A stretch of 64,000 nt of DNA from the NCBI GenBank assembly GCA_963753035.1, contig CAVWAW010000020.1:14040-78039 (forward strand), written 5' to 3'. The notes under the pieces are model-generated. The model was given only the letters and a program-made list of their open reading frames with translations, ran no database searches and was not told where the DNA came from. Positions 26,570-44,311 of this stretch are shown piece after piece; the first letter of the stretch is position 1; every line of letters starts with the position of its first letter. Source of the stretch: an uncultured Acidobacteriota bacterium (lineage in GTDB: Bacteria; Acidobacteriota; Thermoanaerobaculia; Thermoanaerobaculales; Sulfomarinibacteraceae). The translations under genes were made by a program, and so were the position numbers.

Positions 26570-26797
26570 CTTCGGACATCGCCAACCGCTGGCATTTGCG
26601 GTTTTCGCGGTGTTGCGGACTCGCGGTCGTTGCCGACGGCCGACGCGAGGCTGAAAGAGCTCGAATCGCGTCGTCTTTCCAACGAACTCCGCGTTCCGAC
26701 ACCGTTTCGAACCCCGCAAGGGCTCATCGTTCACCGACCGAAGAACGATAGGCCGAGCCGATTAGCGGTGATGGCAGCCATTTCGGGAGGAGTTCAA

Positions 26798-29209: not shown

Positions 29210-29695
29210 ATGAAAAAGTTACTGGTTTTCATTTTCGCCGCCACCCTCTCGGTCGGAGCCGCGTGGTACCGGCACGGGGACTCCGCCCACGCCATGGGGA
29301 TGGTCTCCATCAAGGGAGGACGAGCCCTTCATCCCGTCCACCTGCCTATCGGAAAGGAGCGCTACACCCTGGTGATCACCGGCACCGTCATCCCACCATA
29401 CCGAGGCGATACAAAAGTGACGGTCGATGGTGGCGAACCGATCCCGTTCATCGTCCGCGGTTCAGACCCCATCATCGATCTCGCCCTGCGCCACCGCCCG
29501 TACTTCGAGGACGGGACCCTGACCGGGCTTCAACCGCGAGACCGATTCACCATCTGGGTGGTCATGGACCCGGACGAGCCCATGCCCGCCGGCAAACGCG
29601 ATGTCACGTTCACCGACACAGCCACGAACAAACCGGTGCTCAGGATCCCCGTGATCTTCGGAGGAGGCGGGGAGGGTCAACACCATGACCACTGA
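29210..29695 (+). CDS. Secreted hypothetical protein with C-terminal His-rich tail
   Basis: Signal peptide MKKLLVFIFAATLSVGAA, a beta-rich body and the tail GGGGEGQHHDH. It overlaps the next gene by 11 nt. Confidence 0.5.
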   Translation: MKKLLVFIFAATLSVGAAWYRHGDSAHAMGMVSIKGGRALHPVHLPIGKERYTLVITGTVIPPYRGDTKVTVDGGEPIPFIVRGSDPIIDLALRHRPYFEDGTLTGLQPRDRFTIWVVMDPDEPMPAGKRDVTFTDTATNKPVLRIPVIFGGGGEGQHHDH

Positions 29696-30527
29696 AACCT
29701 ACGGCGCGACGGCCGTTTCGTTCTGGTCCAAACACCGAACCCTGATCCTCATCTCCGGCATCGTGCTCTTCCTGCCACCGCTGGCGGCCATCGTCCAGCT
29801 GACCGGAGATACGAACTTCTGCGGCCGATGGTGTCCACGGATGTTCTTCGCGTGGCGGGAGGGCCAGTCCATGAGCGCATTTCTCATGGGCTTTGTCCGC
29901 GCCTACATGGGTGTCGCCCTGGTGGCGGCAATCCTCGTCACCACGCTGGCTTTCGGCCGCTACTGGTGCAGCCATCTGTGCCCGGTGGCCTCACCCCTCG
30001 AACTCGGGAGCCGGCTGATTCCGAACAAATTCAAGCTCAATTTTTCAGCAACCCCGGCGCCGTCGTTTCGGTACGGTTATCTGCTCATCTATCTCATCGC
30101 CCCGGCCATCGGGATCGGTTCTCTGTGTTGCAACTACTGCAATTTCGCTGCGGTGCCAAGGCTCTTCGCCGCACCGTTCTCCGAGGGTGATCTCATCTAC
30201 TTCCTGAGATTCCAGGGGGTCGTCAACTTCGGTCTCCTGCTCTTCCTCGGGATCTTCGCCAAGGGCGGCCGCGCATACTGCAACCTGCTCTGTCCGGTGG
30301 GAGCGCTGGATGCGCTCTCGAACAAGATCGGGGCACGATTCGGGCGCCGAATCCGCATCGACCATGATGCGTGCACCAACTGCGGCGACTGCTCGGTGGT
30401 CTGCCCGACCTGGGCCATCGATGTCACCGATCTCACCACCATCAACCAGCTTTCCTGCATGCCGTGCCGGCAGTGCCAGGATGTCTGCCAACACGGAGCG
30501 ATTTATTATGGCAAGCCGGCGGCTTAG
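29685..30527 (+). CDS. NapH/MauN/YccM-type membrane polyferredoxin
   Basis: Multi-pass membrane protein with three CX3CP motifs (CGRWCP, CSHLCP, CNLLCP) and two C-terminal 4Fe-4S motifs (CTNCGDCSVVCP, CMPCRQCQDVC). Confidence 0.75.
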   Translation: MTTETYGATAVSFWSKHRTLILISGIVLFLPPLAAIVQLTGDTNFCGRWCPRMFFAWREGQSMSAFLMGFVRAYMGVALVAAILVTTLAFGRYWCSHLCPVASPLELGSRLIPNKFKLNFSATPAPSFRYGYLLIYLIAPAIGIGSLCCNYCNFAAVPRLFAAPFSEGDLIYFLRFQGVVNFGLLLFLGIFAKGGRAYCNLLCPVGALDALSNKIGARFGRRIRIDHDACTNCGDCSVVCPTWAIDVTDLTTINQLSCMPCRQCQDVCQHGAIYYGKPAA

Positions 30528-30753
30528 TCTCGTTGCCGGCGTCATGGGCGTTTCGGCGGGGCTCGCGCCCTATCTGCCGACCGTCATCTGTCCGGGGGGG
30601 GCCTGCACCTCGTGCTTCGCATGTGTCGGCGCCGGCGGCGCCGCGGCGTCAGCGCTGGTTGTCGGACTCATCTCACGGAAGTTCGGTAAGCCCTCCTCGA
30701 GCAAAGACGAACCGGTGACCGCCAACATCAAAGGAGGATCTTCCGAAGGCTGA
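30508..30753 (+). CDS. 81-aa Tat-signal-like miniprotein with CX4CX2CX2C motif and C-terminal hydrophobic segment
   Basis: MASRRLSLVAGVMGVSAGLAP (SRRxSL), then VICPGGACTSCFACVGAGGAAASALVVGLI and a polar tail. ggag lies 9 nt upstream of the ATG. It overlaps the preceding gene by 20 nt. Confidence 0.4.
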   Translation: MASRRLSLVAGVMGVSAGLAPYLPTVICPGGACTSCFACVGAGGAAASALVVGLISRKFGKPSSSKDEPVTANIKGGSSEG

Positions 30754-30793
30754 CCCAATCTGAACACCGCTCGCGCGCGACCTCAGCGACGCG

Positions 30794-32950
30794 TCAGTAG
30801 GTCCACCCGGGGTGGTTCTTGCCGTGGCAGCGCAGAGTGCATTTGCCGTTGTGGGTTCCGGTGGACAAGTACTCCAGCGTCCCGTTGAAGGGAAAAACCA
30901 CCGAGGTGTCAAAGTTGATCAGCTTCGGATTGGCCGAGGCGTGTGGATCATGGCAGACATTGCAGGGGGTATCTTCCTCTCGAATGTGTTTGTCATGATC
31001 ATCGAAACTCGTCCCGTTGCTGATGCTGGTCCACGAGTGACATTTGAAACACAGAGCGAAATTCGCCGTGTTGAAATTCGTGCCGTCCACGGTGACATAG
31101 CGTCGTTCCAGCAGATGGGGCCAATCCGAGCCATGCGGGCCGTTGGCGCCCGAGCCTCCCGCCACCGGACCGTCGTCGTTGTTGTGACAGGTGGTGCAGC
31201 TCATGAGGCTGTTCTCGTCCCAGCCGTTGTTAATGATGAGTGACGGCACGGACGCGTTCGTTCCCTGCACCGCAACCGGGTGGTAGGACGCCATGGAACC
31301 GTCGAATTCCACCCGAACATTTGTTTCCGGGAACTGCCGCGGTGTCGGCGCTGAGGGCAGATTGGGGCTGTCGGCGTGACAACGGAAGCAGAGCTCGTAC
31401 TCATAGGATGCGGGATTCACCGCATTGCCCGCCAAGTTGACGCCCTGAACGCCCTCGAGCGGACCTGATGCGGGTCTCGGCGCTGTCGCCGCGCCGGGAA
31501 GGTTGATCCGACCCACCGCTTCGTGTGGGCCGTGGCAGTCTTCGCACTCGACATGGCGTGTCGTCACGACGGCGGACTCGCCCGGTTGGTGGACCTCCGA
31601 CGCCAACGACAATGGGTGGGCCGATGATTTCTGAAAATCGGCCCGCACATTTGCCGTCGCCGGACTGCCGTCGTGGCAGGTGAAGCAGAGGTTTTCTTCC
31701 AGATCCACCTGGAGCCGAGGATAGTCGCGATCGGTGTCGGCGTTATCGGGCCAGCCGTGCGCCTGGTGGCAGCCCGCGCAGGTCGCGGTCTGGGTCGAAT
31801 CGGTGATGGCCGGAAAGGTCGATCCGTATTGCCCACCGGGCCACAGCGCCCCTGTTGAACCGGAGTCGAAATGTGCCGCCGGAGTCGCGGTGTCGGCCAG
31901 GGTGTGGCACTCGATGCACAGCCCCACTCGATCGGCGCTCCGCAGCAACGAACCATCGTCCACCGGCGAATCATGGAGCTGATGGCAGGTCATGCAAGCG
32001 ATTCGATCGTTCGGATCGAGGGGCAGGGTCGTGGGCGGCTGGGTGCCCCCGGATGCGGGCACGGTGACGTCAACCGGGTGCGACCCGTCGCGAGCGAACT
32101 GGACGACACGGAGGCCGTGGCAGTCGTTGCACATGGCGCCCTCGTCGTTGTCGATGCGCATGAAGTGGCGGCCTTCGCCAGTTCCCGGCCCACCGTAAGG
32201 GGGCGCCGACGCATCGAAGGGTTCCTTGACCTGCTTGTGCTCGTTGTGGCAGGTCGAGCACATGGCCCGGCCGTCCTCGAGCCTGCCCGACATCTCCGGG
32301 GCGGCCGGTGGGAGGATCTCCGTCCTGACATAGATCCTCCAGACGTCGCCGGCCACGAAGGACGGCGGCGCATCGGCGTCGAAGAAACTCACGGTCACAC
32401 CTTCGTCGAGGGGAACATCGGCACCCGTGGTGAGCCCGGTCCCGCCTCCACCGAGGGTGTCGTTCCAGGAAAAAGCCGCGGTTCCGACATCTCCGGTTGA
32501 GGTCACCGTCAGGGTGTAGGTCTTGGGGAACTTGCCGTTGAACGCTCCACCGGGAACGACCTCACCCACCGAGGTGTTGCCGGCGTCCGATTTGATGTGG
32601 CCCGCCGCTCCCGCATCCCACCGGTGCGAGTTGCCCGACGGGGTCGTCCCCGACGGTAATCCTGGGCCGGGCAGTGCCTGGTCGGCGTCGATAAATGGAA
32701 AACCGCCCGCAAAGCCGCCGGCGACGTGGCAGCTCAGACACAGATTGCCGTTGCCGCCCACAGTGGTGAGGCTTCCACCGGCCGAGTTGTGCGTCGTGTG
32801 GCAACTCGAACAATCGATGTTCACCGAAGCATCATGCGCCGGGTCCAACGCCCGGGCGGCAGGAGCGACCAGAAGCAGGATCATCAGGAGAACCGGCCGC
32901 CCACCCTGGAGCCGTCGCCGCAGACTACGGGAACGTTTCAGACCAGGCAT
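30794..32950 (-). CDS. Secreted multiheme c-type cytochrome, 13 CXXCH + 1 CX3CH
   Basis: 718 aa with a signal peptide ending APAARA. Motifs in order: CSSCH, CLSCH, CSTCH, CNDCH, CMTCH, CIECH, CAGCH, CFTCH, CEDCH, CFRCH, CTTCH, CFKCH, CNVCH, then CTLRCH at the C-terminus. A 155-aa heme-free insert lies between hemes 2 and 3. Confidence 0.9.
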   Translation of the reverse strand: MPGLKRSRSLRRRLQGGRPVLLMILLLVAPAARALDPAHDASVNIDCSSCHTTHNSAGGSLTTVGGNGNLCLSCHVAGGFAGGFPFIDADQALPGPGLPSGTTPSGNSHRWDAGAAGHIKSDAGNTSVGEVVPGGAFNGKFPKTYTLTVTSTGDVGTAAFSWNDTLGGGGTGLTTGADVPLDEGVTVSFFDADAPPSFVAGDVWRIYVRTEILPPAAPEMSGRLEDGRAMCSTCHNEHKQVKEPFDASAPPYGGPGTGEGRHFMRIDNDEGAMCNDCHGLRVVQFARDGSHPVDVTVPASGGTQPPTTLPLDPNDRIACMTCHQLHDSPVDDGSLLRSADRVGLCIECHTLADTATPAAHFDSGSTGALWPGGQYGSTFPAITDSTQTATCAGCHQAHGWPDNADTDRDYPRLQVDLEENLCFTCHDGSPATANVRADFQKSSAHPLSLASEVHQPGESAVVTTRHVECEDCHGPHEAVGRINLPGAATAPRPASGPLEGVQGVNLAGNAVNPASYEYELCFRCHADSPNLPSAPTPRQFPETNVRVEFDGSMASYHPVAVQGTNASVPSLIINNGWDENSLMSCTTCHNNDDGPVAGGSGANGPHGSDWPHLLERRYVTVDGTNFNTANFALCFKCHSWTSISNGTSFDDHDKHIREEDTPCNVCHDPHASANPKLINFDTSVVFPFNGTLEYLSTGTHNGKCTLRCHGKNHPGWTY

Positions 32951-34175
32951 TCACATCTCCAGACTCGAAACCGTCATCAAAAATCGATCCCGTCGGGGGC
33001 GGGACTGTGAAATCGTCTAAACCGAAGACCTCGAGACGACCGCTGTTCACCGAGGACACGAACAACCGGTTGTGACCGTCGATGACCAGCCCGAACGGCG
33101 TCCGGAACTGCCCCGGGTGGTCTCCGATGCTGCCGATCACAGCCAACTCCGCGCCGGCTCCATCAAAGACCTTGACGTGGCTCTGGAAGGCGTCGGCGAC
33201 ATAGATTCTGCCGATCCCGTCTCCCCTCAGCCCTTGGATCCGGCCGAAGTTTCGGTCCCCGCCACCCTGAGCCCCGAAACAACGGAGGAAGGCGCCCTGC
33301 CGGTCAAAGACCTGAACCCGATCATTGTTCTGGTCACCGACAAAAACTTCGCCGTAGGGACTCACCCAGACGGCGGATGGAAAATCGAACTCTCCCGGGC
33401 CGCTTCCGCTCCCGCCGAATGATCGAAGCGGCAGACCATCCGGGTCGTAGACCTTGATCAGGTCCGCCTTGCCGTCGGCGACAAAGACCTCGCCGAAACC
33501 GGGGTCCGGATCGATGGCAATGTCGGTCGCACCCTGGAACTCACCGGCGCCGGCGCCGAGCGTGCCGCTGTGGTTCCACTGCTCGTCATAGATGTCCACC
33601 CGGCCGGTTGCATCGTCACTCACGTAGGTGTTTCCAAAATCGTCGACAGCGAGGGCGAGGGGTACACCCATTGCGCTGCGAACTTCGATGACCCGGCCGT
33701 GAACATCCATGATCACGATCGATCCCCGAGTCGGATCGGTGACGTAGACATTGTCACCGGAGTCGACGGCCAACCGCGCCGGCGCCCGCAGACTCTCCAG
33801 CTGAGAGCCCAGGACCTCGACCTCGGGAGGCGGCAGCACCGGTGTTCCATCCCAGGTGCACAGCTGTGCGGATGTCGTTCCCGGCAGGCCGAGAAAGACC
33901 ATGCCGGCAACAAAGACCACCGTCACACGCGCGATCCTGTAGGACCGCGCGGCGCCGGACCGACCTGCGCTCGCACCCCTCGGGTCGTCATCCACCACTG
34001 ATGGACGTCTCACTCCGGCTTCCTTTCTCGCAATGGCATCGTGCAAATAACCAAGAATCGTTCCGAATAATGATTGTCGCGAAAACGGCCATCCTCTTTC
34101 AGTGCCGTAGATCACCGACCCACTCGGACCCGCGAGGGTCACCGCATCCACATGAGTGGAATCGCCAAGCCTCAC
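32925..34175 (-). CDS. NHL-repeat beta-propeller protein (N-terminal TM anchor)
   Basis: Six NHL-like blades (NVYVTDPTRGSIVIMD, NTYVSDDATGRVDIYD, EVFVADGKADLIKVYD, EVFVGDQNNDRVQVFD, RIYVADAFQSHVKVFD, RLFVSSVNSGRLEVF). The start overlaps the upstream stop by 4 nt. Confidence 0.8.
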   Translation of the reverse strand: MRLGDSTHVDAVTLAGPSGSVIYGTERGWPFSRQSLFGTILGYLHDAIARKEAGVRRPSVVDDDPRGASAGRSGAARSYRIARVTVVFVAGMVFLGLPGTTSAQLCTWDGTPVLPPPEVEVLGSQLESLRAPARLAVDSGDNVYVTDPTRGSIVIMDVHGRVIEVRSAMGVPLALAVDDFGNTYVSDDATGRVDIYDEQWNHSGTLGAGAGEFQGATDIAIDPDPGFGEVFVADGKADLIKVYDPDGLPLRSFGGSGSGPGEFDFPSAVWVSPYGEVFVGDQNNDRVQVFDRQGAFLRCFGAQGGGDRNFGRIQGLRGDGIGRIYVADAFQSHVKVFDGAGAELAVIGSIGDHPGQFRTPFGLVIDGHNRLFVSSVNSGRLEVFGLDDFTVPPPTGSIFDDGFESGDVNAWSETFP

Positions 34176-35302
34176 TGGCGCCTGCTGTCCGGTCTGTCTT
34201 CCGGTCGCGGCGCCGCCTGGAAGCCCGTAGGATGCCTGCCAAGGCCGCTATCGCGCGCGGGATCGGCAAACCTCGGGTGACCCTTGCTGGTGAACATGGG
34301 TCCATAGCCGAGGGGGTCGTGATCGACTCCGTGGCAGGTGAGATAGCAACCCCCCATCCCCGCGGCCTCGGAAGTGTATTCGAGCCGCCCCGAACTCGAG
34401 GCCAGCACACCGGTGATCGCGGTGGGCTCATTGAAGCGGATGAGGGCCCGCCCAGCGGTCGCTCCGTGCGAATCGTGGCACAGAACGCACGCGGTTCGTT
34501 GGTCCACGACGTGCAGGCGGTGATACGGAAAGGGGTCGGAATCGAGGACGATCTTTCGATCGTGGCACTGATAGCACAGAGCGTAGGAGCTCTCCGATTC
34601 CGGCTGCCCATCCTGCAATGAGTAGTCCGCGCCGAGCAAACCCGGCACTCGACTCCCGTGCGGTCCGCGCGCACCTCGAACATCATCGTTGGTGTGGCAG
34701 TCCGAACAGTTGATCAGGGAATCCGACGTCAAAGGAGGCAAAAGGCTCGGGACCTCCCCGACACCGATGGCGAGCACCGGATGGAACGACGGATTCCTCG
34801 AATCGAAGAGCAGACCGATGTCATGAGGATCCGAGACCATGGCGGACCGGGTCCCATGACACGAAAGGCAGAGGTTCGCCTCGCTCGTGAAACCCCGTTT
34901 CGGCGAAGGTTTCTGCCGCCCGAGATCGAGGCCGGTTCCGTCCAAGCCCTGGAGCCGGCCGATACCATGAACGCTGTGGCAGTCGACACAACTCGCCCCG
35001 CGGTGGATCACCGGTTTGACCATTTCCACACGGATGTCCGCAGGATCGGCGCCGGAGTCCATTCCGAGTGCTTCCCGCCGGCCGGGCTCGGCCGCACCCG
35101 TCTGGTGGCATTCGATGCACATGGTGTCTCTGTCGGTCTTCAACATGGGGGTTCGGGAGGCCCCGTGACCCTGATGGCAAGGCGTACAGTCTTCGGCGAG
35201 CATCCCCGGCTCGAAGTGCTTGCCGAGATCAACGGCCGAAGCCACCGGGGCGATCAGGACAATCGCCACCGCGGCAGTTCTCAGGAATGACAGGCGATGC
35301 AT
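34172..35302 (-). CDS. Secreted multiheme c-type cytochrome, 7 CXXCH + 1 CX3CH
   Basis: Start taken at MHRLSFLRTAAVAIVLIAPVASA within ORF 34172-35374. Motifs: CTPCH, CIECH, CVDCH, CLSCH, CSDCH, CYQCH, CVLCH, then CYLTCH. The C-terminal half is paralogous to the end of the 718-aa cytochrome. Confidence 0.9.
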   Translation of the reverse strand: MHRLSFLRTAAVAIVLIAPVASAVDLGKHFEPGMLAEDCTPCHQGHGASRTPMLKTDRDTMCIECHQTGAAEPGRREALGMDSGADPADIRVEMVKPVIHRGASCVDCHSVHGIGRLQGLDGTGLDLGRQKPSPKRGFTSEANLCLSCHGTRSAMVSDPHDIGLLFDSRNPSFHPVLAIGVGEVPSLLPPLTSDSLINCSDCHTNDDVRGARGPHGSRVPGLLGADYSLQDGQPESESSYALCYQCHDRKIVLDSDPFPYHRLHVVDQRTACVLCHDSHGATAGRALIRFNEPTAITGVLASSSGRLEYTSEAAGMGGCYLTCHGVDHDPLGYGPMFTSKGHPRFADPARDSGLGRHPTGFQAAPRPEDRPDSRRQ

Positions 35303-35934
35303 AGCTCCCCCGGTTTTGCGGTGAGAAGGAAATCTCCGTACGGATCGCGGTGGGGATCGTGGCAGGTTGTGCACTGGATGCGATTCTCTTTATCGAGCTT
35401 CGCGAGGGGGTGATTCCGCATCTCCGACAACGATCTCAAGGGGACATCGCCCTTGGAGTTATTGGTTGTGACCAGGTGGTCCGTCACCATGAAGGAGACC
35501 GGGTGATCACCGCTCAGGTCACGGCCGAGATTCGATTCCGACGTCGATGGCATGGTGGTGATACCACCACGCATCTCGATCCGACCCGACGACACCGTCG
35601 ATCCGAGCGCGATGGTTCCGTCGTGGCAGGATAGGCAGAGTTTCGAGGAACCATTGGGCTGCGGCGCTTCCCCCGAGGAACTGTAGGCATCCATGGTCTC
35701 GCTCCAGTACATCTGGTAGCTGCCCCCCGGATTCTCCCGATTCCACAACGGCGCCTGGAAGACGGCGTTGTGGGTGGTGTGGCAGAAGACACACACCCTG
35801 GTCTCGGACACCGCTCTGACGGTACCGGGACCGGTCACTGAAAGATTGTGGGAGGTGTCGCGCACGCTTTCCTGGGACGAGGCCAGAACAGCCAGACCCA
35901 ACACCATCGTCAGGGTGATCGCTGCGCGTCTCAT
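35281..35934 (-). CDS. Secreted tetraheme c-type cytochrome (paralog 2)
   Basis: 217 aa with signal peptide ...LAVLASS. Motifs: CVFCHTTHN, CLSCHDG, CTTCHDPH, CIACHS*. It is collinear with the 39770-40381 product and has an ATGA overlap with the upstream NHL gene. Confidence 0.9.
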   Translation of the reverse strand: MRRAAITLTMVLGLAVLASSQESVRDTSHNLSVTGPGTVRAVSETRVCVFCHTTHNAVFQAPLWNRENPGGSYQMYWSETMDAYSSSGEAPQPNGSSKLCLSCHDGTIALGSTVSSGRIEMRGGITTMPSTSESNLGRDLSGDHPVSFMVTDHLVTTNNSKGDVPLRSLSEMRNHPLAKLDKENRIQCTTCHDPHRDPYGDFLLTAKPGELCIACHS

Positions 35935-36938
35935 TTCAGGTTTTCCCTTCGCTGGTAACGCATGAGTTGGACTCGTCGATTCCCGGTATCCGCAACGGCC
36001 ATATGACCGCGGCGATCGATGGCGAGGCCTCCGGGGGTCCAGAATTCCCCGGCCCCGAAACCACGACCTCCGATGATCAGGAGAAGCTGTCCATCCTGGT
36101 CAAAGACCTGAACCGCATCAAAGCGTGCGTCGGACACATAGAGGTGGCCGTCGGGATCGATCGCCAGCCCCTTGGCCAGGGCAAAATGACCAGACCCATC
36201 CCCGTGCTGGCCGAACTGAGAGAGATAATGAAGTTTGGCGTCGAGTTGCTGGATTCGGAAATTGAAGGGGTCGAGGACCCAGACAGTCCCGTCCGGCGCT
36301 TCGGCGACGGCGGTCGGAGTGTTGAACTCGCCATCGCCGGTTCCACGCCTACCTGACCTGGCCACTTCGAGTCCTCCCGTGCTGACACGAACCACCTGAC
36401 CGGTCTCGGCGTCGGTGATCAAAACGTCGCCATTCGCACACACGGCGAGCCCACCACAACGCTGCACAAAGCCTTGACTCACGACCTCGCCGAGCAGCAC
36501 GCCTTTGTGGTCGAAAGCGATGACCGCTCCGAGTTCCCGATCGGCAACCAGGATCTGATCCCCATCCGGGGTCGCGGCGATTGCGACCGGTTGCATGCCT
36601 TCAGGCAGCTTCAACCTGATCGCGGCGCTTCCATCGGTCTTGCCGCCGATCACCCAGTTCATGGCCGTGTCCACCACGAAGACCCGGTCTTTGGCGAGGG
36701 CCACGGCAACGGGCCGCGGCAGAGGCAACGTCTGCTGACGCCGCTCGGCGCCGGCCACTGCACGGAAGATCCGTCCCAGCCCCTTGGGGCGGAACTCATC
36801 GACGGTGGCCTGCCAGGCAACCTCGGCCGGAGCCTCTGCCGAAGGCGGCGGCCAGACCGGGCCTTCAGCACACATCCCCGGTGACGGCAGGCAACCCGCT
36901 CCGAGAAACACCACGAGTGCGATTCGTCGCACCCTCAT
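35931..36938 (-). CDS. NHL-repeat beta-propeller protein, lipobox-like signal (paralog of 40725-41774)
   Basis: N-terminus is MRVRRIALVVFLGAGC. NHL blades include QILVADRELGAVIAFD, VWVLDPFNFRIQQLD, HLYVSDARFDAVQVFD and HMAVADTGNRRVQLM. It has an ATGA overlap with the upstream barrel gene. Confidence 0.8.
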   Translation of the reverse strand: MRVRRIALVVFLGAGCLPSPGMCAEGPVWPPPSAEAPAEVAWQATVDEFRPKGLGRIFRAVAGAERRQQTLPLPRPVAVALAKDRVFVVDTAMNWVIGGKTDGSAAIRLKLPEGMQPVAIAATPDGDQILVADRELGAVIAFDHKGVLLGEVVSQGFVQRCGGLAVCANGDVLITDAETGQVVRVSTGGLEVARSGRRGTGDGEFNTPTAVAEAPDGTVWVLDPFNFRIQQLDAKLHYLSQFGQHGDGSGHFALAKGLAIDPDGHLYVSDARFDAVQVFDQDGQLLLIIGGRGFGAGEFWTPGGLAIDRRGHMAVADTGNRRVQLMRYQRRENLK

Positions 36939-38695
36939 CTTCGATGATCTCCGGCTCTGAATTGGAACAATCGCCTCACACCGACCCAGATCCTTCGGAA
37001 CCGGCGCTGTTCGAGTCCCGCCTCCTCGGTCCGCTGCTCTCGGACCCGAGCATAGAACGAGAGCTTGGCATAGTTGAATCGAAGTCCGAGCTCGGCGAAT
37101 TCATAGGTTCCGATATGATCGAAGATCCTGCGTTCCTCGGAGCGTACAAAACCGTCGAAGAGCAACCAATACGTCGGCCCCCAGCTGATGTTCGCCTGCC
37201 ACACATCGGTCAGAGTCGGGACTTCGCTTCCGACCATCTCAAACCGGTCGGCGGAGGCTCCGATGGTCACCCGTCCGAGCGCGATGTTGAGCTGGGCACG
37301 GGCGACATCCTCCTCGATCTCGAATCCCCGGTCCACCCGTACCCGGTTGCGATAGTCCAAGTCGAGCGACAACGCGGTTCGTTGGCTGGGTCGATACTCG
37401 AATATCACCCGTCCGCGGTAGCGCCGCCGGTCTAAACCGGCGAGAAACGCGCTCCCGATGGGAGGTTCGCCGATGCTGTAGTCCGGTATCGAGAGTTGGT
37501 TGTCAAAGTACTCGACGTCGAGAGTCACGCTCGAGCGAGGAAGCTGGTAGCGAACCGACCCGAAGATCAGGGAGCCGAAGGCCGATTCCTGTTCGAGCTC
37601 CTCCGGATCGGCCCTGAGATAGGTCACCCGGGGGTAGAGCGACACCCACCAACGGCCGTACTGCTTGCCCCATCTCAGTCCGAGGCCCGCCCGCGGCTGG
37701 GTCAGCCGTAAACCGTCACCGTATTCGTTGCTGAGGTAGCCGAGTTCGGCCTCGAGAAAGGTCGAGGGACTCAGCGGAGCGACGAGGTTGGCCGAGAGGT
37801 TACCGGTAATGATCTCTTCAACCGGGTCGGTCTCGACGCGGACCACGCGCATATCCGCCCTCAGGTCCCAGAAACCGAGTTGACTGTATCGGTGGCGCAA
37901 CTGGTTTCTGAACAGGTAGTTTGTCGTCCACGGCGAGAAATCACCGTGATTCTGGGCGGAGCGGTAGACATTTCCGATCAGGTCGGTGTGCCAGTAGACC
38001 TTTCCGGTCCGGTTGACGTCGAGGTCGAACCGTCCCGAACCGATCTCCTGCTGAAGACCACCTCCAAAGAGGTCGTTCTCCTTCCAAAGAAGCTGCAGCA
38101 TGGCATCGACTTTGCCGACGGCCGCCTGGGTGGACAGCTCGCTCCAGGCGGTGTCTTCATCACGCAGGGTGTCCGGCTGGTCCGCGTTGAAGCTCTGCTC
38201 CCAATGCCGAAGATTGAGACGGAACCACTGGCCGCCGAGAGCTCTCAGGCCATACCGCTGATAGTCTCGCACGCCATCGACGATCGCTCCCTGCTGGAGA
38301 CCCGTGACATCGGTACCCTGGCGACCCGCACCGACTTCGAGCGAGATCGCGCGGTTGTTGAAGAACCGGAGCGACCCGTCGTAATAGGTGTCGTCGACGT
38401 CGTTGTCCTGGGCGCCGGAAATCGTCTGATTCGACAGGGTTTTTGCAACACTGGCATCAAAGGTCATGAATCTCGGATCGACGAGGTGCCCGGCGACGGC
38501 CGCCCAGAGAACGGTCTGGAGATTCGATCTCTCGGCGGAAATGCCTCCGTATTCCTGTGAATCGCTCAGGTATTCCGCCGAGAGGCCAAGCGTGAAGGTC
38601 GCCCCGCTCGAGGCCCATGCGGACCCGGCGCAGCACCAAAGACAGATCACTGCGCAGATCCGGCGAGCGACGGGGTTCAGAATCTTTCGGCGCAC
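36935..38695 (-). CDS. Predicted outer-membrane beta-barrel protein
   Basis: 586 aa with a signal peptide ending SAWA and no Cys-heme motif. It has a long series of short alternating hydrophobic/polar strands rich in Y/R/G/D (FTLGLSAEYLS, LRFFNNRAISLEVGAG, RFDLDVNR, VSLYPRVTYLR, LSLDLDYRNRV, LGLRFNYAKLSFYARV) and a near-terminal ...IWVGVRRLFQF. Confidence 0.55.
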   Translation of the reverse strand: MRRKILNPVARRICAVICLWCCAGSAWASSGATFTLGLSAEYLSDSQEYGGISAERSNLQTVLWAAVAGHLVDPRFMTFDASVAKTLSNQTISGAQDNDVDDTYYDGSLRFFNNRAISLEVGAGRQGTDVTGLQQGAIVDGVRDYQRYGLRALGGQWFRLNLRHWEQSFNADQPDTLRDEDTAWSELSTQAAVGKVDAMLQLLWKENDLFGGGLQQEIGSGRFDLDVNRTGKVYWHTDLIGNVYRSAQNHGDFSPWTTNYLFRNQLRHRYSQLGFWDLRADMRVVRVETDPVEEIITGNLSANLVAPLSPSTFLEAELGYLSNEYGDGLRLTQPRAGLGLRWGKQYGRWWVSLYPRVTYLRADPEELEQESAFGSLIFGSVRYQLPRSSVTLDVEYFDNQLSIPDYSIGEPPIGSAFLAGLDRRRYRGRVIFEYRPSQRTALSLDLDYRNRVRVDRGFEIEEDVARAQLNIALGRVTIGASADRFEMVGSEVPTLTDVWQANISWGPTYWLLFDGFVRSEERRIFDHIGTYEFAELGLRFNYAKLSFYARVREQRTEEAGLEQRRFRRIWVGVRRLFQFRAGDHRR

Positions 38696-39759
38696 TCTCG
38701 AACCTCAATCGCCGCCTGGTCGACCAACTCCAGTTCGAATTCGTCGAGTCGGCGCTGTCTCTTTTCGCTGGTGATCCGTTCCTCCACCGCATCCCGCACG
38801 GTGGCGAGCTCGATCGGTTGTGATGGTCGGGTGCTGATCACTTGCAGGACATGGTAGCCGTGAATCGATTTCACCGGCTCGATCACCTCTCCGACCTCCG
38901 CTGAAAAGACCGCCTCATCGGCCGCAGGCAACAGCGATCCGCGGTGGACAAAGCCGATGTCTCCGACCTCATCCTGAAATCGAGGGGAGAGGCTCTCGAG
39001 ATCCGACTCACCCACTTCGAGCAACGAGGTGTCACCCCGACGGGCGTCTTCGGCAAGTAGGCGCGCGTGTTGCTCGGACTCCCGCCACTCCTCCTGGGTC
39101 GCAGACGGTGGAACGTTGACCAGGATGTGAACCACGTGACGGGCTTCCGGGGTCACATAGTCATCGCTGTTGAGGATGAAGAAGACCTCAACCTCGATCT
39201 CGGTTGGAGGTGTAACGCTGGAAACGATGGTCTCGTCAACCGCGTCGGCTACGGCATCCCGGTGGAGGGCCAGCCGGAATTCATCTTCGGCGATTCCCTT
39301 GGTCTCGAGGGCGGCGCGGTACTGCGCTTCGCTGGTAAATCGCGCCCGCACTTCCTGCCACGCCGCCGCTTCGGCCGCTTCATCGACATCGACGGGGTTT
39401 TCTTGCGCCCACTGCCGCTTGAGTTCTTTCAGCACCAGGGCCTCGATAGACTCGCACCTGAGTTCGGATTTTCGCTCAGTTGAGATCTGCCGATGGTAGC
39501 TTCCAACCGAAATCCGCACGGCCAGTTCGCGATCGAGTTCCCACGCCTCGAGCTGTCGGCCATTGACGGTCGCCACCGAATCGACCACCGCGGCTGACTC
39601 GCCAACCGAAGCGACAAAATGCATGGCGGCCGCTAAAATCACGACCGCGTTGAGCAACAGCCTGCCCGATGCGGCTTTCCCATGAGCGGCAGAAACCACC
39701 CCGAAAAAGGCACGGGGGGCGAAACGATCGCCCCCCGTGTCGCGAGCTTGCGTCATCAC
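38677..39759 (-). CDS. Parvulin-type peptidyl-prolyl cis-trans isomerase (SurA/PrsA-like), membrane-anchored
   Basis: N-terminal TM followed by a SurA-N-like helical region. PpiC domain: ARHVVHILV...GDIGFVHRGSLLPAADEAVFS.EVGEV..PVKSIHGYHVLQV. Confidence 0.8.
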   Translation of the reverse strand: MMTQARDTGGDRFAPRAFFGVVSAAHGKAASGRLLLNAVVILAAAMHFVASVGESAAVVDSVATVNGRQLEAWELDRELAVRISVGSYHRQISTERKSELRCESIEALVLKELKRQWAQENPVDVDEAAEAAAWQEVRARFTSEAQYRAALETKGIAEDEFRLALHRDAVADAVDETIVSSVTPPTEIEVEVFFILNSDDYVTPEARHVVHILVNVPPSATQEEWRESEQHARLLAEDARRGDTSLLEVGESDLESLSPRFQDEVGDIGFVHRGSLLPAADEAVFSAEVGEVIEPVKSIHGYHVLQVISTRPSQPIELATVRDAVEERITSEKRQRRLDEFELELVDQAAIEVRECAERF

Positions 39760-39769
39760 CAGGAGCGGA

Positions 39770-40381
39770 CTACTTCGCGTGGCAACGGATGCACATCAGG
39801 CTCCCGGCCGGATCTTCCACCAGAAGGGACGGGTTGCTCCCGACGGCCCCGCCGTTGTGCACGTCGTGGCAGGTAGCGCACTCCACCTTGTTGGCGAAGA
39901 GATAGTCCGCAATGTTCCCATCGGCGTAGACCGACGACGTGGGGTTGAGTTCGGGATCCTGACCCGCGCCCGTTCCTGCGCTGTAGGTCACGCTGATCGG
40001 GTGGTCGTTCGACAGATCGGTTCCAACCAAGGCTCCACCGGTGATGTAGGTATTGCCGCTGGTGTTGCCGCCGAAGTTCTCGAGCGCAACGGTGCCGTCG
40101 TGACAGGAAAGACACGCCTTGGAGACATCGGCCGGTTGCGGATCGACCACTCCATCGAGGGTGTCACTGGTGTACATCTGGAACGTCGCCGTGGTCACCT
40201 CGTGGTTCCACAGCGGCGCAACAAAGGCGGTCTCACCATCGTGGGTCGTGTGGCACGGCAGGCAGATGGTGCCGTTCGACCACGTTTCGCTACTGAAATC
40301 GTGTGCGCTGCCGGTAATCTGGGCGCTGGCGAAACCTGCGCTCAGGACAATGCAGAAGCTCACTACAAGCGCTCTCTTCAT
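39770..40381 (-). CDS. Secreted tetraheme c-type cytochrome (paralog 1)
   Basis: 203 aa from the ATG at 40381 (ggaggg 8 nt upstream) within ORF 39770-40507. Signal peptide is MKRALVVSFCIVLSAGFASA. Motifs: CLPCHTTHD, CLSCHDG, CATCHDVHN, CIRCHAK*. Five further His residues are available as distal ligands. Confidence 0.9.
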   Translation of the reverse strand: MKRALVVSFCIVLSAGFASAQITGSAHDFSSETWSNGTICLPCHTTHDGETAFVAPLWNHEVTTATFQMYTSDTLDGVVDPQPADVSKACLSCHDGTVALENFGGNTSGNTYITGGALVGTDLSNDHPISVTYSAGTGAGQDPELNPTSSVYADGNIADYLFANKVECATCHDVHNGGAVGSNPSLLVEDPAGSLMCIRCHAK

Positions 40382-40502
40382 GATTTTTGCCCTCCGTTCT
40401 CGAATCCAAAGAAACTCGATTCGAACCTTGCTGCCGGCGTGGGCCCTTCGCGTCAGATTGCGAACGGCCCGCAGGTTCGGTCGAATCTCATCAACTGACT
40501 GG

Positions 40503-40531
40503 AGCATATTTTGGATCTATTCCTAAATCAA
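40503..40531 (-). promoter_or_regulatory. Sigma70-like promoter candidate for the tetraheme-led operon
   Basis: On the minus strand: TTGATT (40531-40526), a 17-nt spacer, then TATGCT (40508-40503), about 120 nt upstream of the ATG and inside a 343-nt AT-richer gap. Sequence match only. Confidence 0.3.
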
Positions 40532-40724
40532 TGCTTGCACGCATGAACACGTGACGAAGCACACATAACTGACCGGGTTTTTGTCATGTACATGTAATGG
40601 ACCCATGAAGTAAAGACACCGTCTCAATAGCATGCACTCCAATCTCGCCCGATGATTCCGATCAAATCGCCGTTGGGCGCCGAATCGATATTCCGACCTC
40701 GCGCATCGTGATCTCGCCGGCTGA

Positions 40725-41774
40725 TCACTGCGGTGAACCAAGGAACCGAAAGAGCTGTACGCGGTGGTTGAGCGTATCGGCGACGACGAGGAGGTCGTCA
40801 CGCATGGCAATCCCCGAAGGCAGAGAGAATTGGCCCGGCCCCTGTCCGGGCTCTCCGAACCACATGAGCAATTCGCCGTCGAGGTTGAACATCTGAACGA
40901 GCTGAAACGCTCCATCCACCTCATACAACACGCCATTGGCGGCGTCGGCCACCAAACCACGAGGTCGGTTCAGGTCTCCGGGATTGTCACCCGCACTGCC
41001 GAATATCAAATCGAGATCACCGGCGGGATCGAAGACCTGAATCCGGAAATTCAGGTAGTCCGAGACATAAAGATAGCCATCGGCGTCAAAGGTCGCCGCC
41101 ACGGGAAAGTTGAATTCGCCCTCTCGGGCGCTGTGCTCATTGCCACCCCAGGTCATGACGGTTTCGCCGGTCGCGGTGTCGATCACATCGACCGCGTGGC
41201 GTTCGGTGTCGCACACCGCGATCCGATCGCCACCGGCCGTCACCGCAATCGAGGTCGGCCGGTCGAAAACCGATGCACCGCCATAGACCATCTTGAACTG
41301 GAGGGCCGCATCGTACGCGTAGACCGCCTGCGAGCTCGCGTCGCTGACATATAAAGTACCGTCATCGGCCACCGCGACGCCAACGGGTTGGAAGAGCGAG
41401 CCCGGAGCCGATCCCCGGAAGAGCTCGAACCGCTGTTCATCCTGGTTGATGATCACGACTCCCCGGAGATGTTGATCGACAACATAGAAGGTCTGGTCCG
41501 GGCCGATGGCAACTGCGGTCGGCGCCATCAGCGACGCCTCGACCTCCTCGTCGCCGACCAGGACCTTTTTCCAGGTGCGTTTCCGTTTGTCGACATCGCC
41601 TCGGGTGCCGATCGCACCGATCCATTCGATCACCGGTTCGGCCGGAGCCGGAGGATAGACAACCGATGTCGGCTCCGATGCGACTCGCTTGTCCGAAGGC
41701 GCACCACCGGAACTGCAGGACCAGAGGAGCGCTGCGACCACTGGAAAAAGAATGTATTTTGCTCGATGGCCCAT
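40725..41774 (-). CDS. NHL-repeat beta-propeller lipoprotein
   Basis: Lipobox AALLWSC. NHL blades include TFYVVDQHLRGVVIIN, TLYVSDASSQAVYAYD, YLYVSDYLNFRIQVFD, VLYEVDGAFQLVQMFN and LLVVADTLNHRVQLFR. Confidence 0.8.
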   Translation of the reverse strand: MGHRAKYILFPVVAALLWSCSSGGAPSDKRVASEPTSVVYPPAPAEPVIEWIGAIGTRGDVDKRKRTWKKVLVGDEEVEASLMAPTAVAIGPDQTFYVVDQHLRGVVIINQDEQRFELFRGSAPGSLFQPVGVAVADDGTLYVSDASSQAVYAYDAALQFKMVYGGASVFDRPTSIAVTAGGDRIAVCDTERHAVDVIDTATGETVMTWGGNEHSAREGEFNFPVAATFDADGYLYVSDYLNFRIQVFDPAGDLDLIFGSAGDNPGDLNRPRGLVADAANGVLYEVDGAFQLVQMFNLDGELLMWFGEPGQGPGQFSLPSGIAMRDDLLVVADTLNHRVQLFRFLGSPQ

Positions 41775-41794
41775 CAGTCAGTTCTCGCTCTCGT

Positions 41795-43546
41795 TCATTT
41801 GGGGTGGCATGCGATGCACAGCTCCGCCTGGTTGGTCGCTTTCCATGTAAACAACTTCGGGTTCGGCGCAGCATGGGGTTCGTGGCACAGCCTACAGGTC
41901 ATTTCCTGCCCGACCAGCGATTTCGCCACCTCGGTCCGACCCTCGCCATCGATGAGCCCCGAAACCGGATGTTCGGGGATCGGGTGGTCCTTTCGAAGAA
42001 AGGGATCGAGGCCGATCATTTCGAGATCCCGCGCGCGCTCGCCTCGCAACACGAATCCACCGTCAAGCCTGATGTTGCCGTTGGAGTCCACGTTGACCCT
42101 GTTCTTCAGGTGACACCCGTTGCACAGGTCGTTCCCCGACGCCCGTAGGAGATTCTCATTCGGGCCACCGTGGGGCTGGTGACAACTGTGGCATCCGATC
42201 CAAGAGATCGCCCGGTGCACGCTTTCGCCCTCGGCACCCGCCTGGTCCTCATGGCAGTCGAGGCAAACGCCGCCACCCGCGGCCCGCAGGAGTTTCGGCT
42301 GACGGGATGCATGGGGAGAATGGCAGTCCACGCACTCCATCGCCTCCATGGCGGGGTGGGGCACGGCGGCCGTCGCAATGGTCTCCGCCACGTCGTCGTG
42401 GCACATTTCGCACAACGCATTACCGCCACCGCCCTCGAGTTCCTGCGCCGTGCCTCCATGGCAATTGGTGCAGCCCTCGCGGAACGGCGGGTGGATCGAT
42501 CCGTTGGCGATGAGCGGCTTGCTCGACGAACCGTGGGGATCGTGGCAATCGAGGCAGTCGGTGGTCGCCATATCCGCCCCGAAGTGCAGCCGTTGAAGAT
42601 CGGGGTCCGCCGAATCGTGGCAGGTGCGACAGAGTTCGTCCCCGTCATCGAGCAACATCGCGGGCCGGTCGGAAGAATGCGCGTCGTGACATCCGTCGCA
42701 GCCATCTTCCAGCGCTGCGTGGGCGCCGGGGCCCTTCGCTCGCTCGGCGATGTCCGGGTGGCACGAGAAACAGAGCTCGCCGCCGTCGGCTTTGAGCAGG
42801 TGGGGTTGATCCGCAAGATGGGGATCGTGGCATTCGACGCACCGGCCCTGTTTGAGCGCGGTGTGCACCACTCGACCGCTCGTGTCCGCGAAATCGCCGT
42901 GGCACGCCTCACAGAGGGCGCCACCCTCCTGCAGTAAACGCACCCGTGTCCCACGCGGTGTTCGATGGCACGCATCGCACGAACCCTCCTCAAAGGGCAC
43001 GTGTCGCGTCGATCCACGCAGCATGTGGGCATTCTTCGATCCGTGCGCCTCGTGGCAGGTTCGGCAATCGGCGCGCCGCACGGGAATCGGGTGCGCGGCG
43101 TCGGTGTCATCCGCGTCGTGACACTCGGCGCAGATCCGGCCCGCCTCTACGCTGAGCATGGCGTCAAAATCGGTGCCGTGCGGACCATGACAGTTTCCAC
43201 AGTCATCGACCACCGGAGCGTGCGGCACGGCAATTTCACCGTTCGCGGCCGCCGTCAGACCATCGTGACAGACCAGACACAGCGCAGATCCGGACTCCAC
43301 CAACGCCACACTCATTTCACTTTCGCCGGCTTCAAAGACGTGGCAGCTCAGACAGTCGTCGACCGCGGGGGGGTGGGGAACCCGTACCGCGACGACCTCG
43401 TCGTGGCAGGTTTCACAGGTCGCCTTTTCAGGATCCACGAGCGTCGGGTGGTCCGCGGCCACGCCGGTTTCCGCGACTATGCCGGAGATCAGCACAATCG
43501 CCAGGCAGAAAACCATGCTGAAGGCGGGTCGGTGTTGTGATTCCAT
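41795..43546 (-). CDS. Secreted multiheme c-type cytochrome with 21 CXXCH motifs
   Basis: 583 aa with an N-terminal signal/anchor FSMVFCLAIVLISGIVA. There are 21 CXXCH (CETCH ... CIACHPK*), arranged mostly as pairs of type LCxxCHD ... (D/E)CxxCHx(P/A)H. Confidence 0.9.
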   Translation of the reverse strand: MESQHRPAFSMVFCLAIVLISGIVAETGVAADHPTLVDPEKATCETCHDEVVAVRVPHPPAVDDCLSCHVFEAGESEMSVALVESGSALCLVCHDGLTAAANGEIAVPHAPVVDDCGNCHGPHGTDFDAMLSVEAGRICAECHDADDTDAAHPIPVRRADCRTCHEAHGSKNAHMLRGSTRHVPFEEGSCDACHRTPRGTRVRLLQEGGALCEACHGDFADTSGRVVHTALKQGRCVECHDPHLADQPHLLKADGGELCFSCHPDIAERAKGPGAHAALEDGCDGCHDAHSSDRPAMLLDDGDELCRTCHDSADPDLQRLHFGADMATTDCLDCHDPHGSSSKPLIANGSIHPPFREGCTNCHGGTAQELEGGGGNALCEMCHDDVAETIATAAVPHPAMEAMECVDCHSPHASRQPKLLRAAGGGVCLDCHEDQAGAEGESVHRAISWIGCHSCHQPHGGPNENLLRASGNDLCNGCHLKNRVNVDSNGNIRLDGGFVLRGERARDLEMIGLDPFLRKDHPIPEHPVSGLIDGEGRTEVAKSLVGQEMTCRLCHEPHAAPNPKLFTWKATNQAELCIACHPK

Positions 43547-43906
43547 CTATTCTCCAGCAGCCGCCATCGGTCGCGGTCCCACCAATAGCGTGTTGACGTC
43601 TATTGGTTCTCGTCGCGGTTGTTAGCGCCCATTGTAGATCTTACTTCCAGATCCGAAAACCCGGAGCCGCAGCTTCTTGTTGTCGATCCTCGATCTCGTT
43701 CAACTTTTCGGAGGATCAAGCCACATCCCAGGTTCGCGGTCGGACTCCCCATCACGGTAGAGCCTCCCACATCCAATCGATGATGACTGTGTGATGAGGA
43801 TCACCAAATTGCAAGGTTGCTCAATCAAACACTTCATGAGCATCAAACCTCACGGTCGTGGATACCCGGTCTCCCGACACGAGCCCTCACGCGGTACACT
43901 CGCACC

Positions 43907-44311
43907 ATGGCTAGCGGTGCTTCCCTCCGTCTCGACATCTGGCTCGATGTAGCCTGCATCTACAAGACCAGATCACAGGCCCAGGCGGCCTGCAAGAACG
44001 GACGCGTGGAAGTCAATGGTGACAATGGCAAGGCCCACCGCGCGGTCCGACCGGGGGACGAGATCAAGATCTCGCTCCCCGGCGGTCGGAAGCGAACCAT
44101 CGAGGTCGTGGAAATCGAATCCACCAACGTCTCCAAAGCCCGCGCGCGCGAACTTTACATCGACCACACTCCGCCCCCGACCCCGGAAGAAATCGAACTC
44201 AGGAAGATGCAACGTCTCTCCTCGCCGCCTCGCCGCGACCGCGGCATGGGTGCGCCCAAGAAACAGGAACGCAGGCAACTGCGCCGGCTGAAAGAGGGCG
44301 AAGATCTCTGA
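43907..44311 (+). CDS. S4-domain RNA-binding protein (Hsp15/HslR-like)
   Basis: 134 aa from ATG 43907. S4 motif LRLDIWLDVACIYKTRSQAQAACKNGRVEVNG, then a basic C-terminal tail. Confidence 0.75.
   Translation: MASGASLRLDIWLDVACIYKTRSQAQAACKNGRVEVNGDNGKAHRAVRPGDEIKISLPGGRKRTIEVVEIESTNVSKARARELYIDHTPPPTPEEIELRKMQRLSSPPRRDRGMGAPKKQERRQLRRLKEGEDL

Follow-up and report, generated by a model that had tools for sequence, protein, structure and literature searches.

A probable OmcE-type cytochrome nanowire gene cluster with two divergent tetrahaem proteins in an uncultured, probably Thermoanaerobaculia-like lineage

Introduction

Cytochrome nanowires have been seen directly in few organisms, and therefore both their distribution and their assembly pathway matter. 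The stretch of DNA analysed here, called the window (64,000 nucleotides (nt) of contig CAVWAW010000020.1, assembly GCA_963753035.1, from an uncultured Acidobacteriota bacterium), encodes two small tetrahaem cytochromes, T1 and T2, which a first-pass annotation had proposed as possible filament subunits with a likeness to OmcS. This raises the question whether T1 and T2 build filaments, to which known type such filaments would belong, and why two divergent proteins of this kind are encoded together. We propose that the minus-strand region 43546-30794 is an OmcE-type cytochrome nanowire cluster in which T1 and T2 are the polymerising subunits, a reading that we hold to be probable, though well short of certain. 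Judged from sequence, T2 is likely to polymerise; for T1, which represents a sister subfamily, this is somewhat less certain.

T1 and T2 are tetrahaem cytochromes of the OmcE family

The two genes and their products are the following.

39770-40381, minus strand: T1, secreted OmcE-family tetrahaem cytochrome of 203 amino acids (aa), PLWNH subfamily (placed by homology and haem ligands)
35281-35934, minus strand: T2, secreted OmcE-family tetrahaem cytochrome of 217 aa, PLWNR subfamily (placed by homology and a neighbour-joining tree)

As described in the first-pass annotation, both are secreted proteins of about 200 aa, each with a signal peptide and four CXXCH sites. T1 starts at ATG 40381, with the Shine-Dalgarno sequence GGAGGG 8-13 nt 5' of this codon; its signal peptide ends at ASA/QI, and its haem sites lie at C40, C90, C168 and C197. 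The first-haem motif of T2 reads CVFCHTTHN. Both proteins close on a haem site, as had been claimed, with LMCIRCHAK (T1) and ELCIACHS (T2) directly before the stop. When the window is translated in six frames, C..CHTTH[DN] is matched at exactly three places, 40238-40264 (T1), 35767-35793 (T2) and 32786-32812 (a 718-aa cytochrome), and these are the three proteins in which it had been noticed near the N-terminus. The spacing of about 20 residues between signal cleavage and the first Cys that had been given along with it holds for T1; T2 has about 27 residues there, and the 718-aa protein about 13. T1 and T2 are 33% identical to each other. Their motifs are not due to chance because they are kept across thousands of homologues.

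The alignment with OmcE that had been suggested as a check returned full-length matches (E 1e-18 to 4e-31). In phmmer searches of solved structures T1 matched 9YUQ (E 5.7e-20) and 7TFS (E 7e-18), both over the full length, and T2 aligned end to end with 7TFS (E 3.8e-31) and 9YUQ (E 1e-19). These two are the only solved OmcE nanowire subunits; 7TFS is the OmcE nanowire of Geobacter sulfurreducens, and 9YUQ an antiparallel OmcE nanowire bundle of Desulfuromonas soudanensis WTL (DSOUD_2954). They were recovered at E 1.1e-46 and 3.8e-42 by a profile that comprises 97 family members. The two filament formers are 39% identical to each other, and T1 and T2 stand at about equal distance from them (33-36%). 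Pfam and NCBIfam assigned to T1 and T2 only generic doubled-CXXCH and c7/c3-type domains. On these alignments T1 and T2 almost certainly belong to the OmcE family. A crude neighbour-joining tree, which carries no support values, clusters T2 with both solved OmcEs and places T1 in a broad sister group; by this measure T2 is the nearer counterpart of G. sulfurreducens OmcE. When the AlphaFold2 (AF2) model of T1, a haem-free monomer, was compared with the PDB by Foldseek, the sole match was 7TFS (E 9e-5, probability 1.00), which is weak corroboration. Relatives of T1 number more than 7,500 at E<=1e-5 among 90% clusters and 2,459 at E<=1e-10 among 50% clusters; more than 5,300 relatives were found for T2.

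It had been proposed earlier that T1 and T2 are OmcS-type subunits, with the histidine of CHTTH acting as His16 of OmcS. We regard this as very improbable. Proteins of both kinds do carry a local motif CxxCHT(T/P/M)H(N/D) near the N-terminus (CEGCHTMHNS in OmcS), and OmcS haems can reportedly be superimposed on those of OmcE, but the same two proteins are published as lacking sequence similarity, and OmcS has six haems on about 400 aa. Single-sequence searches gave OmcS at E 7 with T2 and not at all with T1, and the N-terminal 47 residues of mature T1 did not retrieve OmcS from the solved structures at E<=10. The family profile reaches E 9.8e-8 against OmcS, but this value is a sum over four to five short doubled-CXXCH stretches, each at E >=0.9, and the OmcS N-terminus (AECEGCHTMHNS...CLNCHQ) aligns to the last doubled-CXXCH module (profile positions 170-203), not to the first haem site. 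Since MtrA is matched in the same way and scores similarly (E 2.6e-5), the profile similarity to OmcS is a similarity of modules. The motif CXXCHxxH follows 21 of the 49 CXXCH sites of the cluster and is therefore generic to the doubled-CXXCH module, so that CxxCHTTH does not serve as a marker of filaments. Taking together the single-sequence, fragment and profile searches, haem number and length, we rejected T1 and T2 as members of the OmcS family. The 718-aa cytochrome was likewise rejected as an OmcE-like N-terminal mimic, as BLAST gave generic doubled-CXXCH module matches only and its N-terminus is similar at module level. For the archaeal tetrahaem nanowires PcECN (8E5F) and AvECN (8E5G), which had also been cited as tetrahaem proteins of similar size, neither T1 or T2 nor the family profile gave a match at E<=10. 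What remains of the original proposal is its core, that T1 and T2 are possible filament subunits, which is now supported by full-length OmcE homology and by the cluster genes instead of by OmcS.

Haem ligands and subunit contacts

Outside the CXXCH sites T1 contains five histidines (H27, H47, H60, H127, H175) and T2 six, as had been counted. The four CXXCH sites, H27, H47, H127, H175 and PLWN (T1 numbering) are invariant in a 17-sequence alignment that covers both subfamilies; in an alignment of 97 sequences H27, H47 and H127 are still invariant, while H175 and the last two CXXCH sites are among the columns that are only >=90% conserved. By this count, four CXXCH sites and four distal histidines suffice for bis-His ligation of four haems. 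Matching conserved features, four haem sites and four further histidines, were reported for OmcE homologues (Petersen et al.). In OmcE filaments each subunit supplies one histidine as ligand to a haem of its neighbour. Since each subunit gives one histidine and receives one, eight suffice, and the spare histidine that had been reserved for an inter-subunit bond is unnecessary. The extra histidines of T2 (H153, H175) are not conserved beyond near relatives in the 17-sequence alignment. The T1-type subfamily, however, conserves a ninth histidine, H60 of PLWNH: this motif is present in 109 of the 120 best T1 matches, whereas PLWNR is found in 98 of the 120 best T2 matches and in both solved OmcEs.

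We propose that Sec exports T1 and T2 and that cytochrome c maturation attaches four c-type haems to each. Every haem would be bis-His ligated, by the four CXXCH histidines together with the distal H27, H47, H127 and H175 (in T1), and, on the pattern of the solved OmcE filaments, each subunit would contribute one distal histidine to a haem of the subunit that follows. Outside the cell, head-to-tail polymerisation would then produce an insulated chain of closely stacked haems.

Natural fusions of two to four T1-type modules bear on how such subunits may meet; five are present among the best 150 representatives (P0267, P0268, P0269, P0276, P0294). Tandem fusions reach 16-20 CXXCH sites, and some carry C-terminal non-haem domains. 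Most of the junctions are linker-free, with the last C..CH followed after 8-9 residues by the histidine of HD[FL]S, or more broadly H[DN][FL]S, in the next module (e.g. CLTCHDLGITGSAHDFS). Joining the end of mature T1 to its own start gives equal spacing (CIRCHAK/QITGSAHDFS). This points to head-to-tail contact of free subunits, in which the N-terminal histidine would come near the last haem of the preceding unit, although such a Rosetta-stone-style argument is a hint rather than proof.

The gene cluster around T1 and T2

T1 and T2 are encoded among the following minus-strand genes.

41795-43546, minus strand: first cluster gene, 583-aa periplasmic or outer-membrane cytochrome with 21 CXXCH sites (11 Paired_CXXCH_1 repeats, E 4e-94)
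40725-41774, minus strand: 349-aa NHL-repeat beta-propeller, probably a lipoprotein (lipobox-like LLWSC; Pfam NHL, E 4e-24)
38677-39759, minus strand: SurA/PpiC-type peptidyl-prolyl isomerase (PPIase), 360 aa as listed, with N-terminal anchor or signal (Rotamase, E 6e-13; SurA_N_3, E 2e-7)
36935-38695, minus strand: 586-aa large outer-membrane beta-barrel with about 28 predicted strands (AF2, Foldseek, hhalign)
35931-36938, minus strand: 335-aa NHL beta-propeller, probably a lipoprotein (LGAGC; Pfam NHL, E 3e-22)
34172-35374, minus strand: multihaem cytochrome of about 376-400 aa with 7 CXXCH sites (Paired_CXXCH_1, E 4e-21)
32925-34175, minus strand: third NHL or six-bladed beta-propeller, listed open reading frame (ORF) of 416 aa, 332-350 aa in relatives (Pfam DUF5128, NHL)
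30794-32950, minus strand: 718-aa cytochrome with 13 CXXCH sites, probably surface-exposed (Paired_CXXCH_1, E 8e-30; Mtrc-MtrF_II-IV_dom, E 8e-11)

The T2 gene overlaps its neighbours at both ends: the stop of the 335-aa propeller gene overlaps the T2 start (ATGA), and the 7-haem cytochrome, which is called as 376 aa in relatives, there overlaps the T2 end by 22 nt. The N-terminal motif of the 718-aa cytochrome reads CSSCHTTHN. Pfam and NCBIfam searches with the 586-aa protein gave no match. Its AF2 model (predicted local distance difference test (pLDDT) 81.8) consists of a signal helix and 28 strands, and Foldseek returned MtrB as best match (6R2Q_B, E 2.5e-8, TMq 0.55, 9% identity), followed by LptD, FimD/PapC ushers and TonB-dependent receptors; strand number and barrel-type matches therefore indicate a very large outer-membrane barrel.

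OmcE clusters of the smallest size invariably encode a large beta-barrel and OmcE, together with two multihaem cytochromes and two beta-propeller lipoproteins, and the combination of barrel and propeller was used to nominate nanowire-competent OmcE homologues (Petersen et al.). Exactly this minimal set is encoded by the genes that run from the barrel through T2 to the 718-aa cytochrome; beyond it the cluster holds T1, the 21-haem cytochrome, one propeller and the PpiC gene. Within an OmcE-type system the barrel of about 28 strands could serve as outer-membrane passage or anchor, the propeller lipoproteins and the SurA/PpiC-type protein would act in assembly or chaperoning, and the 21-, 7- and 13-haem cytochromes would carry electrons from the periplasm to the filament base.

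The last cytochrome gene is adjoined on the plus strand (29685-30527) by a gene for a 280-aa polytopic protein with Fer4_5 and 4Fe-4S dicluster domains, judged NapH/MauN-like, which is found at the same place in the related loci L001 and L003 and may provide inner-membrane electron input.

The barrel and the large cytochromes could also be read as a porin-cytochrome conduit, in which a multihaem cytochrome, for instance the 583-aa protein, is enclosed by the barrel in the way that MtrA is enclosed by MtrB, and T1 is a non-polymerising monomeric tetrahaem, soluble or surface-bound. MtrB is indeed the best structural match of the barrel, the 718-aa cytochrome has an MtrC/MtrF-like domain, and the 583-aa cytochrome, at 200.8 bits, narrowly exceeds the 192.2-bit cutoff of the DmsE/MtrA-family model TIGR03508; its fit to MtrA is loose, however, because the score is summed over 7 repeat matches. 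The ninth histidine could complete bis-His ligation within a single molecule, and most members of the family are uncharacterised. On the other hand, T1 is homologous over its full length to two proteins known solely as filaments, and its four distal histidines, which necessarily include the interface ligand, are conserved without exception in the 17-sequence alignment. Proven OmcE genes lie in the same cluster architecture, and the linker-free tandem fusions argue for modules that abut head to tail. We therefore consider a monomeric T1 rather unlikely and retain the OmcE-type nanowire cluster as the preferred interpretation.

Expression signals around T1

Two non-coding elements flank the T1 gene.

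40382-40724, minus strand: T1 upstream region, 343 nt (Shine-Dalgarno sequence GGAGGG; weak sigma-70-like site)
39711-39739, minus strand: terminator-like hairpin with a 12-base-pair stem, 10 of the pairs G-C, followed by a T run (terminator scan)

The gap and the good ribosome-binding site that the first-pass annotation had pointed out upstream of T1 are present, and the region is partly conserved in L001-L003. The promoter-like sequence fared less well. The best sigma-70-like candidate found by eye, TTGATT (40531-40526) and TATGCT (40508-40503) separated by 17 nt, agrees at 8 of 12 positions and is weak, and a sigma-70 scan of the minus strand returned no site over threshold in the gap. A sigma-54 site was found neither in the window nor in L001 or L003. 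The more distant relatives L083 (843-2237; 6232) and L085 (228-1586; 5384) carry both a histidine kinase with a sigma-54 activator ahead of the cluster and a -24/-12 site with 10 of 12 matches directly 5' of the T1-type gene; the window, L001 and L003 are without either.

The hairpin begins 31 nt past the T1 stop and, at -31 kcal/mol, is the best terminator-like site in 30500-44000. Its position is kept in 4 of 5 sequences compared, with two-sided changes in 4 of the 14 pairs. Since the hairpin lies inside the PpiC ORF as listed (start GTG 39759), the true start is probably GTG 39699, which is in frame just past the T run; the product would then open with a typical signal or anchor sequence. 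Across 82 loci the strongest fold downstream of a gene has a median of -17.7 kcal/mol for OmcE-like genes, compared to -12.0 for multihaem and -13.1 for NHL genes (Mann-Whitney p 2.8e-9), where 45-nt folds within 90 nt of the gene ends were taken and coding and intergenic downstream sequence were pooled with no control for either. Strong downstream folds fit an OmcE-like subunit that is made in excess over the accessory genes. With its own upstream region and the strong hairpin, T1 would be a separately and abundantly expressed subunit.

Conservation of the cluster and the pairing of T1 and T2

L001 and L003 share the window's gene order, with T1 91% and 77% identical, respectively. In L083 and L085/86 this order is kept from the 58x-aa cytochrome through the cytochrome after T2, but is not continued by the third propeller and the 718-aa cytochrome. 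The position of the 583-aa cytochrome is conserved in L001, L003, L083 and L085. L083 comes from a Thermoanaerobaculia metagenome-assembled genome (MAG) and has a T2 of 60% identity; in L085/86 T2 is 73% identical, and the protein cluster was named Gemmatimonadota by one source. A homologue of the barrel at 71% identity is named Candidatus Sulfomarinibacteraceae (Acidobacteriota, Thermoanaerobaculia). Going by the names of three homologues, the host is probably Thermoanaerobaculia-like. The SurA/PpiC gene is present in L001-L003 and L085/86, and absent from L083 and the other 79 loci.

A genome scan for relatives yielded at least 79 loci from many phyla. Among the 79 loci listed, a T1-type gene is most often followed by an NHL gene, a 5-haem cytochrome, a protein of about 660 aa, another NHL gene and an 11-haem cytochrome. 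The proteins of about 660 aa form one family, present in 58 of these other loci, and most of the ten C-termini inspected are aromatic (F or W), as in outer-membrane barrels. When the barrel and PpiC proteins of the window were run by jackhmmer against the ORFs of the 82 loci, only the three closest relatives were recovered, and a word-based homologue search with the barrel gave just 26 close relatives. By hhalign, however, the window barrel matches the family of about 660 aa with 94.8% probability (E 5e-8, 307 columns), and by this profile comparison it is a remote homologue of that family, with 586 aa compared to about 650-900 aa in other loci. The same architecture surrounds a PLWNH-type gene in L059, a Geobacter sp. 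MAG.

Two further observations concern relatives of the subunit and of the barrel. Eight loci (L020, L025, L026, L033, L035, L043, L045, L057) encode OmcE-like proteins that are similar in length but have five CXXCH sites, often without NHL, barrel or multihaem neighbours; these proteins match a possible five-haem 'OmcE-like' family to which Petersen et al. refer. Long N-terminal extensions are carried by the cluster barrels of L058 (12749-15646, Desulfobulbaceae MAG) and L059 (12627-15368), one with about 30 copies of (A/S)TP(S/G)L(I/L)(A/G)Q and the other of about 270 aa.

In the window two divergent OmcE-family genes flank one barrel gene, and this pairing around a single barrel is conserved in L003, L083 and L085. 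At least two OmcE-like genes occur, as counted by eye, in about a quarter of the 79 loci listed. T1 and T2 might thus be the major and minor subunits of one filament, one forming the shaft and the other an initiator, terminator or anchor at the single barrel. T1 would then be a candidate 'stopper' that donates a histidine to the terminal haem while ligating all its own haems. Petersen et al. picture the ideal stopper as an OmcE-like protein that combines four haems with nine histidines, and found none in the OmcE operons of Desulfuromonadia; T1-type proteins retain a ninth histidine with H60. The count is weak evidence, however, since G. sulfurreducens OmcE has nine histidines too, one of them non-conserved and in a loop. 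Moreover, in most of the loci listed a T1-type gene is the sole OmcE-like gene beside barrel, propellers and multihaem cytochromes and therefore not just a cap there, and it is T1, not T2, that has its own upstream region and a strong terminator, as expected of the abundant subunit. Such a division into shaft and cap is unlikely in our view. If it were true, a two-component filament, with T2 (PLWNR), T1 (PLWNH), a shared barrel and a dedicated chaperone, would supply the operon-encoded stopper or tip.

Weighing the nanowire reading

Several points weigh against the OmcE-type nanowire cluster as the explanation of 43546-30794. The family is very large and mostly annotated merely as 'cytochrome c3 family', and filaments were observed for just two of its members. 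The AF2 model of T1 is poor (pLDDT 65.8, template modelling (TM) score 0.38 to 7TFS). H60 could ligate the own interface haem of T1, which would make T1 a monomer or a cap. The best structural match of the barrel, MtrB, sheathes a cytochrome and does not secrete a filament. To these are added the outcome of both promoter searches in the window and the pooled design of the downstream-fold comparison. They are set against full-length homology of both proteins to the solved filament subunits, conservation of the eight histidine ligands, the presence of the complete minimal OmcE gene set and synteny with related loci, and on balance we favour a nanowire cluster.

Implications

OmcE nanowires, their cluster and their wide distribution have already been published. 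In keyword searches covering part of the literature, no report was found of an OmcE-type system in this uncultured lineage, of the conserved pairing of divergent subunits at a single barrel, of a dedicated PpiC gene, of a division into PLWNH and PLWNR types, of the range of phyla that carry the module, or of the linker-free fusions. The full OmcE-type gene set is present in an uncultured, probably Thermoanaerobaculia-like lineage, and the module occurs in MAGs of many more phyla than the five listed in a 2025 preprint; those added include Calditrichota, Bacteroidota/Ignavibacteria, Gemmatimonadota, Planctomycetota, Verrucomicrobiota, Kiritimatiellota and Deferribacterota. The paired T1 and T2, with one barrel and a PPIase-type chaperone, offer a genetic system for questions of filament start, stop and anchoring, and the linker-free fusions hint at how subunits abut. 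For annotation some caution is appropriate, as homology by itself is no proof that every family member polymerises.

Other genes of the window

Elsewhere in the window the following were noted; the products of 3518-6262, 26630-29191 and 58669-61905 are envelope or secreted proteins.

3518-6262, minus strand: 914-aa protein with phytase-like and endonuclease/exonuclease/phosphatase parts
11321-13408, minus strand: single 695-aa ORF with domains of the response-regulator receiver, OmpR-type DNA-binding, HAMP, HisKA and HATPase types; it encodes a fused two-component protein, or else merges two separate genes
26630-29191, plus strand: TonB-dependent receptor with a CarboxypepD_reg domain
58669-61905, minus strand: 1078-aa C25 (gingipain-type) peptidase

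Comparison with known systems

The closest known system is OmcE of G. sulfurreducens, whose gene we take to be GSU0618. It resembles T1 and T2 in size (about 200-230 aa), in its Sec signal and in having four CXXCH sites plus four other conserved histidines, and it has HD[LF]S, CxxCHTPH, PLWN, CLSCHDG, DHP and the terminal doubled CXXCH in common with them. Its cluster, too, contains a large beta-barrel, beta-propeller lipoproteins and multihaem cytochromes. However, T1 and T2 are only 34-36% identical to it, and PLWNR in this protein is replaced by PLWNH in T1. The window has two OmcE-family genes instead of one, three propellers, three large cytochromes and a SurA/PpiC gene, while a glycosylation gene block is absent from the 12.7-kb cluster, to which this comparison was confined. 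OmcE of D. soudanensis shares the eight identical histidine ligands and likewise has a minimal cluster without glycosylation genes, but its identity to T1 and T2 is 33-35%. The loops of its bundling interface were reported as not conserved among homologues, and therefore bundling cannot be inferred for T1 and T2.

OmcS (PDB 6EF8/6NEF) resembles the proposed filament in its insulated wire of bis-His haems, the single inter-subunit histidine ligand and doubled-CXXCH modules of the type CxxCHxxH(N). It differs in having six haems, about 400 aa and another fold, compared to four haems and about 200 aa in T1 and T2. The MtrAB conduits (6R2Q) also have a large barrel encoded beside MtrA/DmsE-like and MtrC-like multihaem cytochromes. 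The window barrel, however, has about 28 predicted strands and no sequence similarity to MtrB, and its cluster adds OmcE-type subunits and NHL propellers, neither of which, to our knowledge, accompanies Mtr genes. By analogy only, the cluster may be compared to chaperone-usher pili, which combine an outer-membrane barrel with a periplasmic chaperone-like gene, have an attenuating hairpin after the subunit gene and possibly major and minor subunits; ushers are also among the fold matches of the barrel. Neither subunits nor chaperone are homologous, and while pilus subunits are joined by donor-strand exchange, the haem subunits of OmcE are joined by a His-Fe bond.

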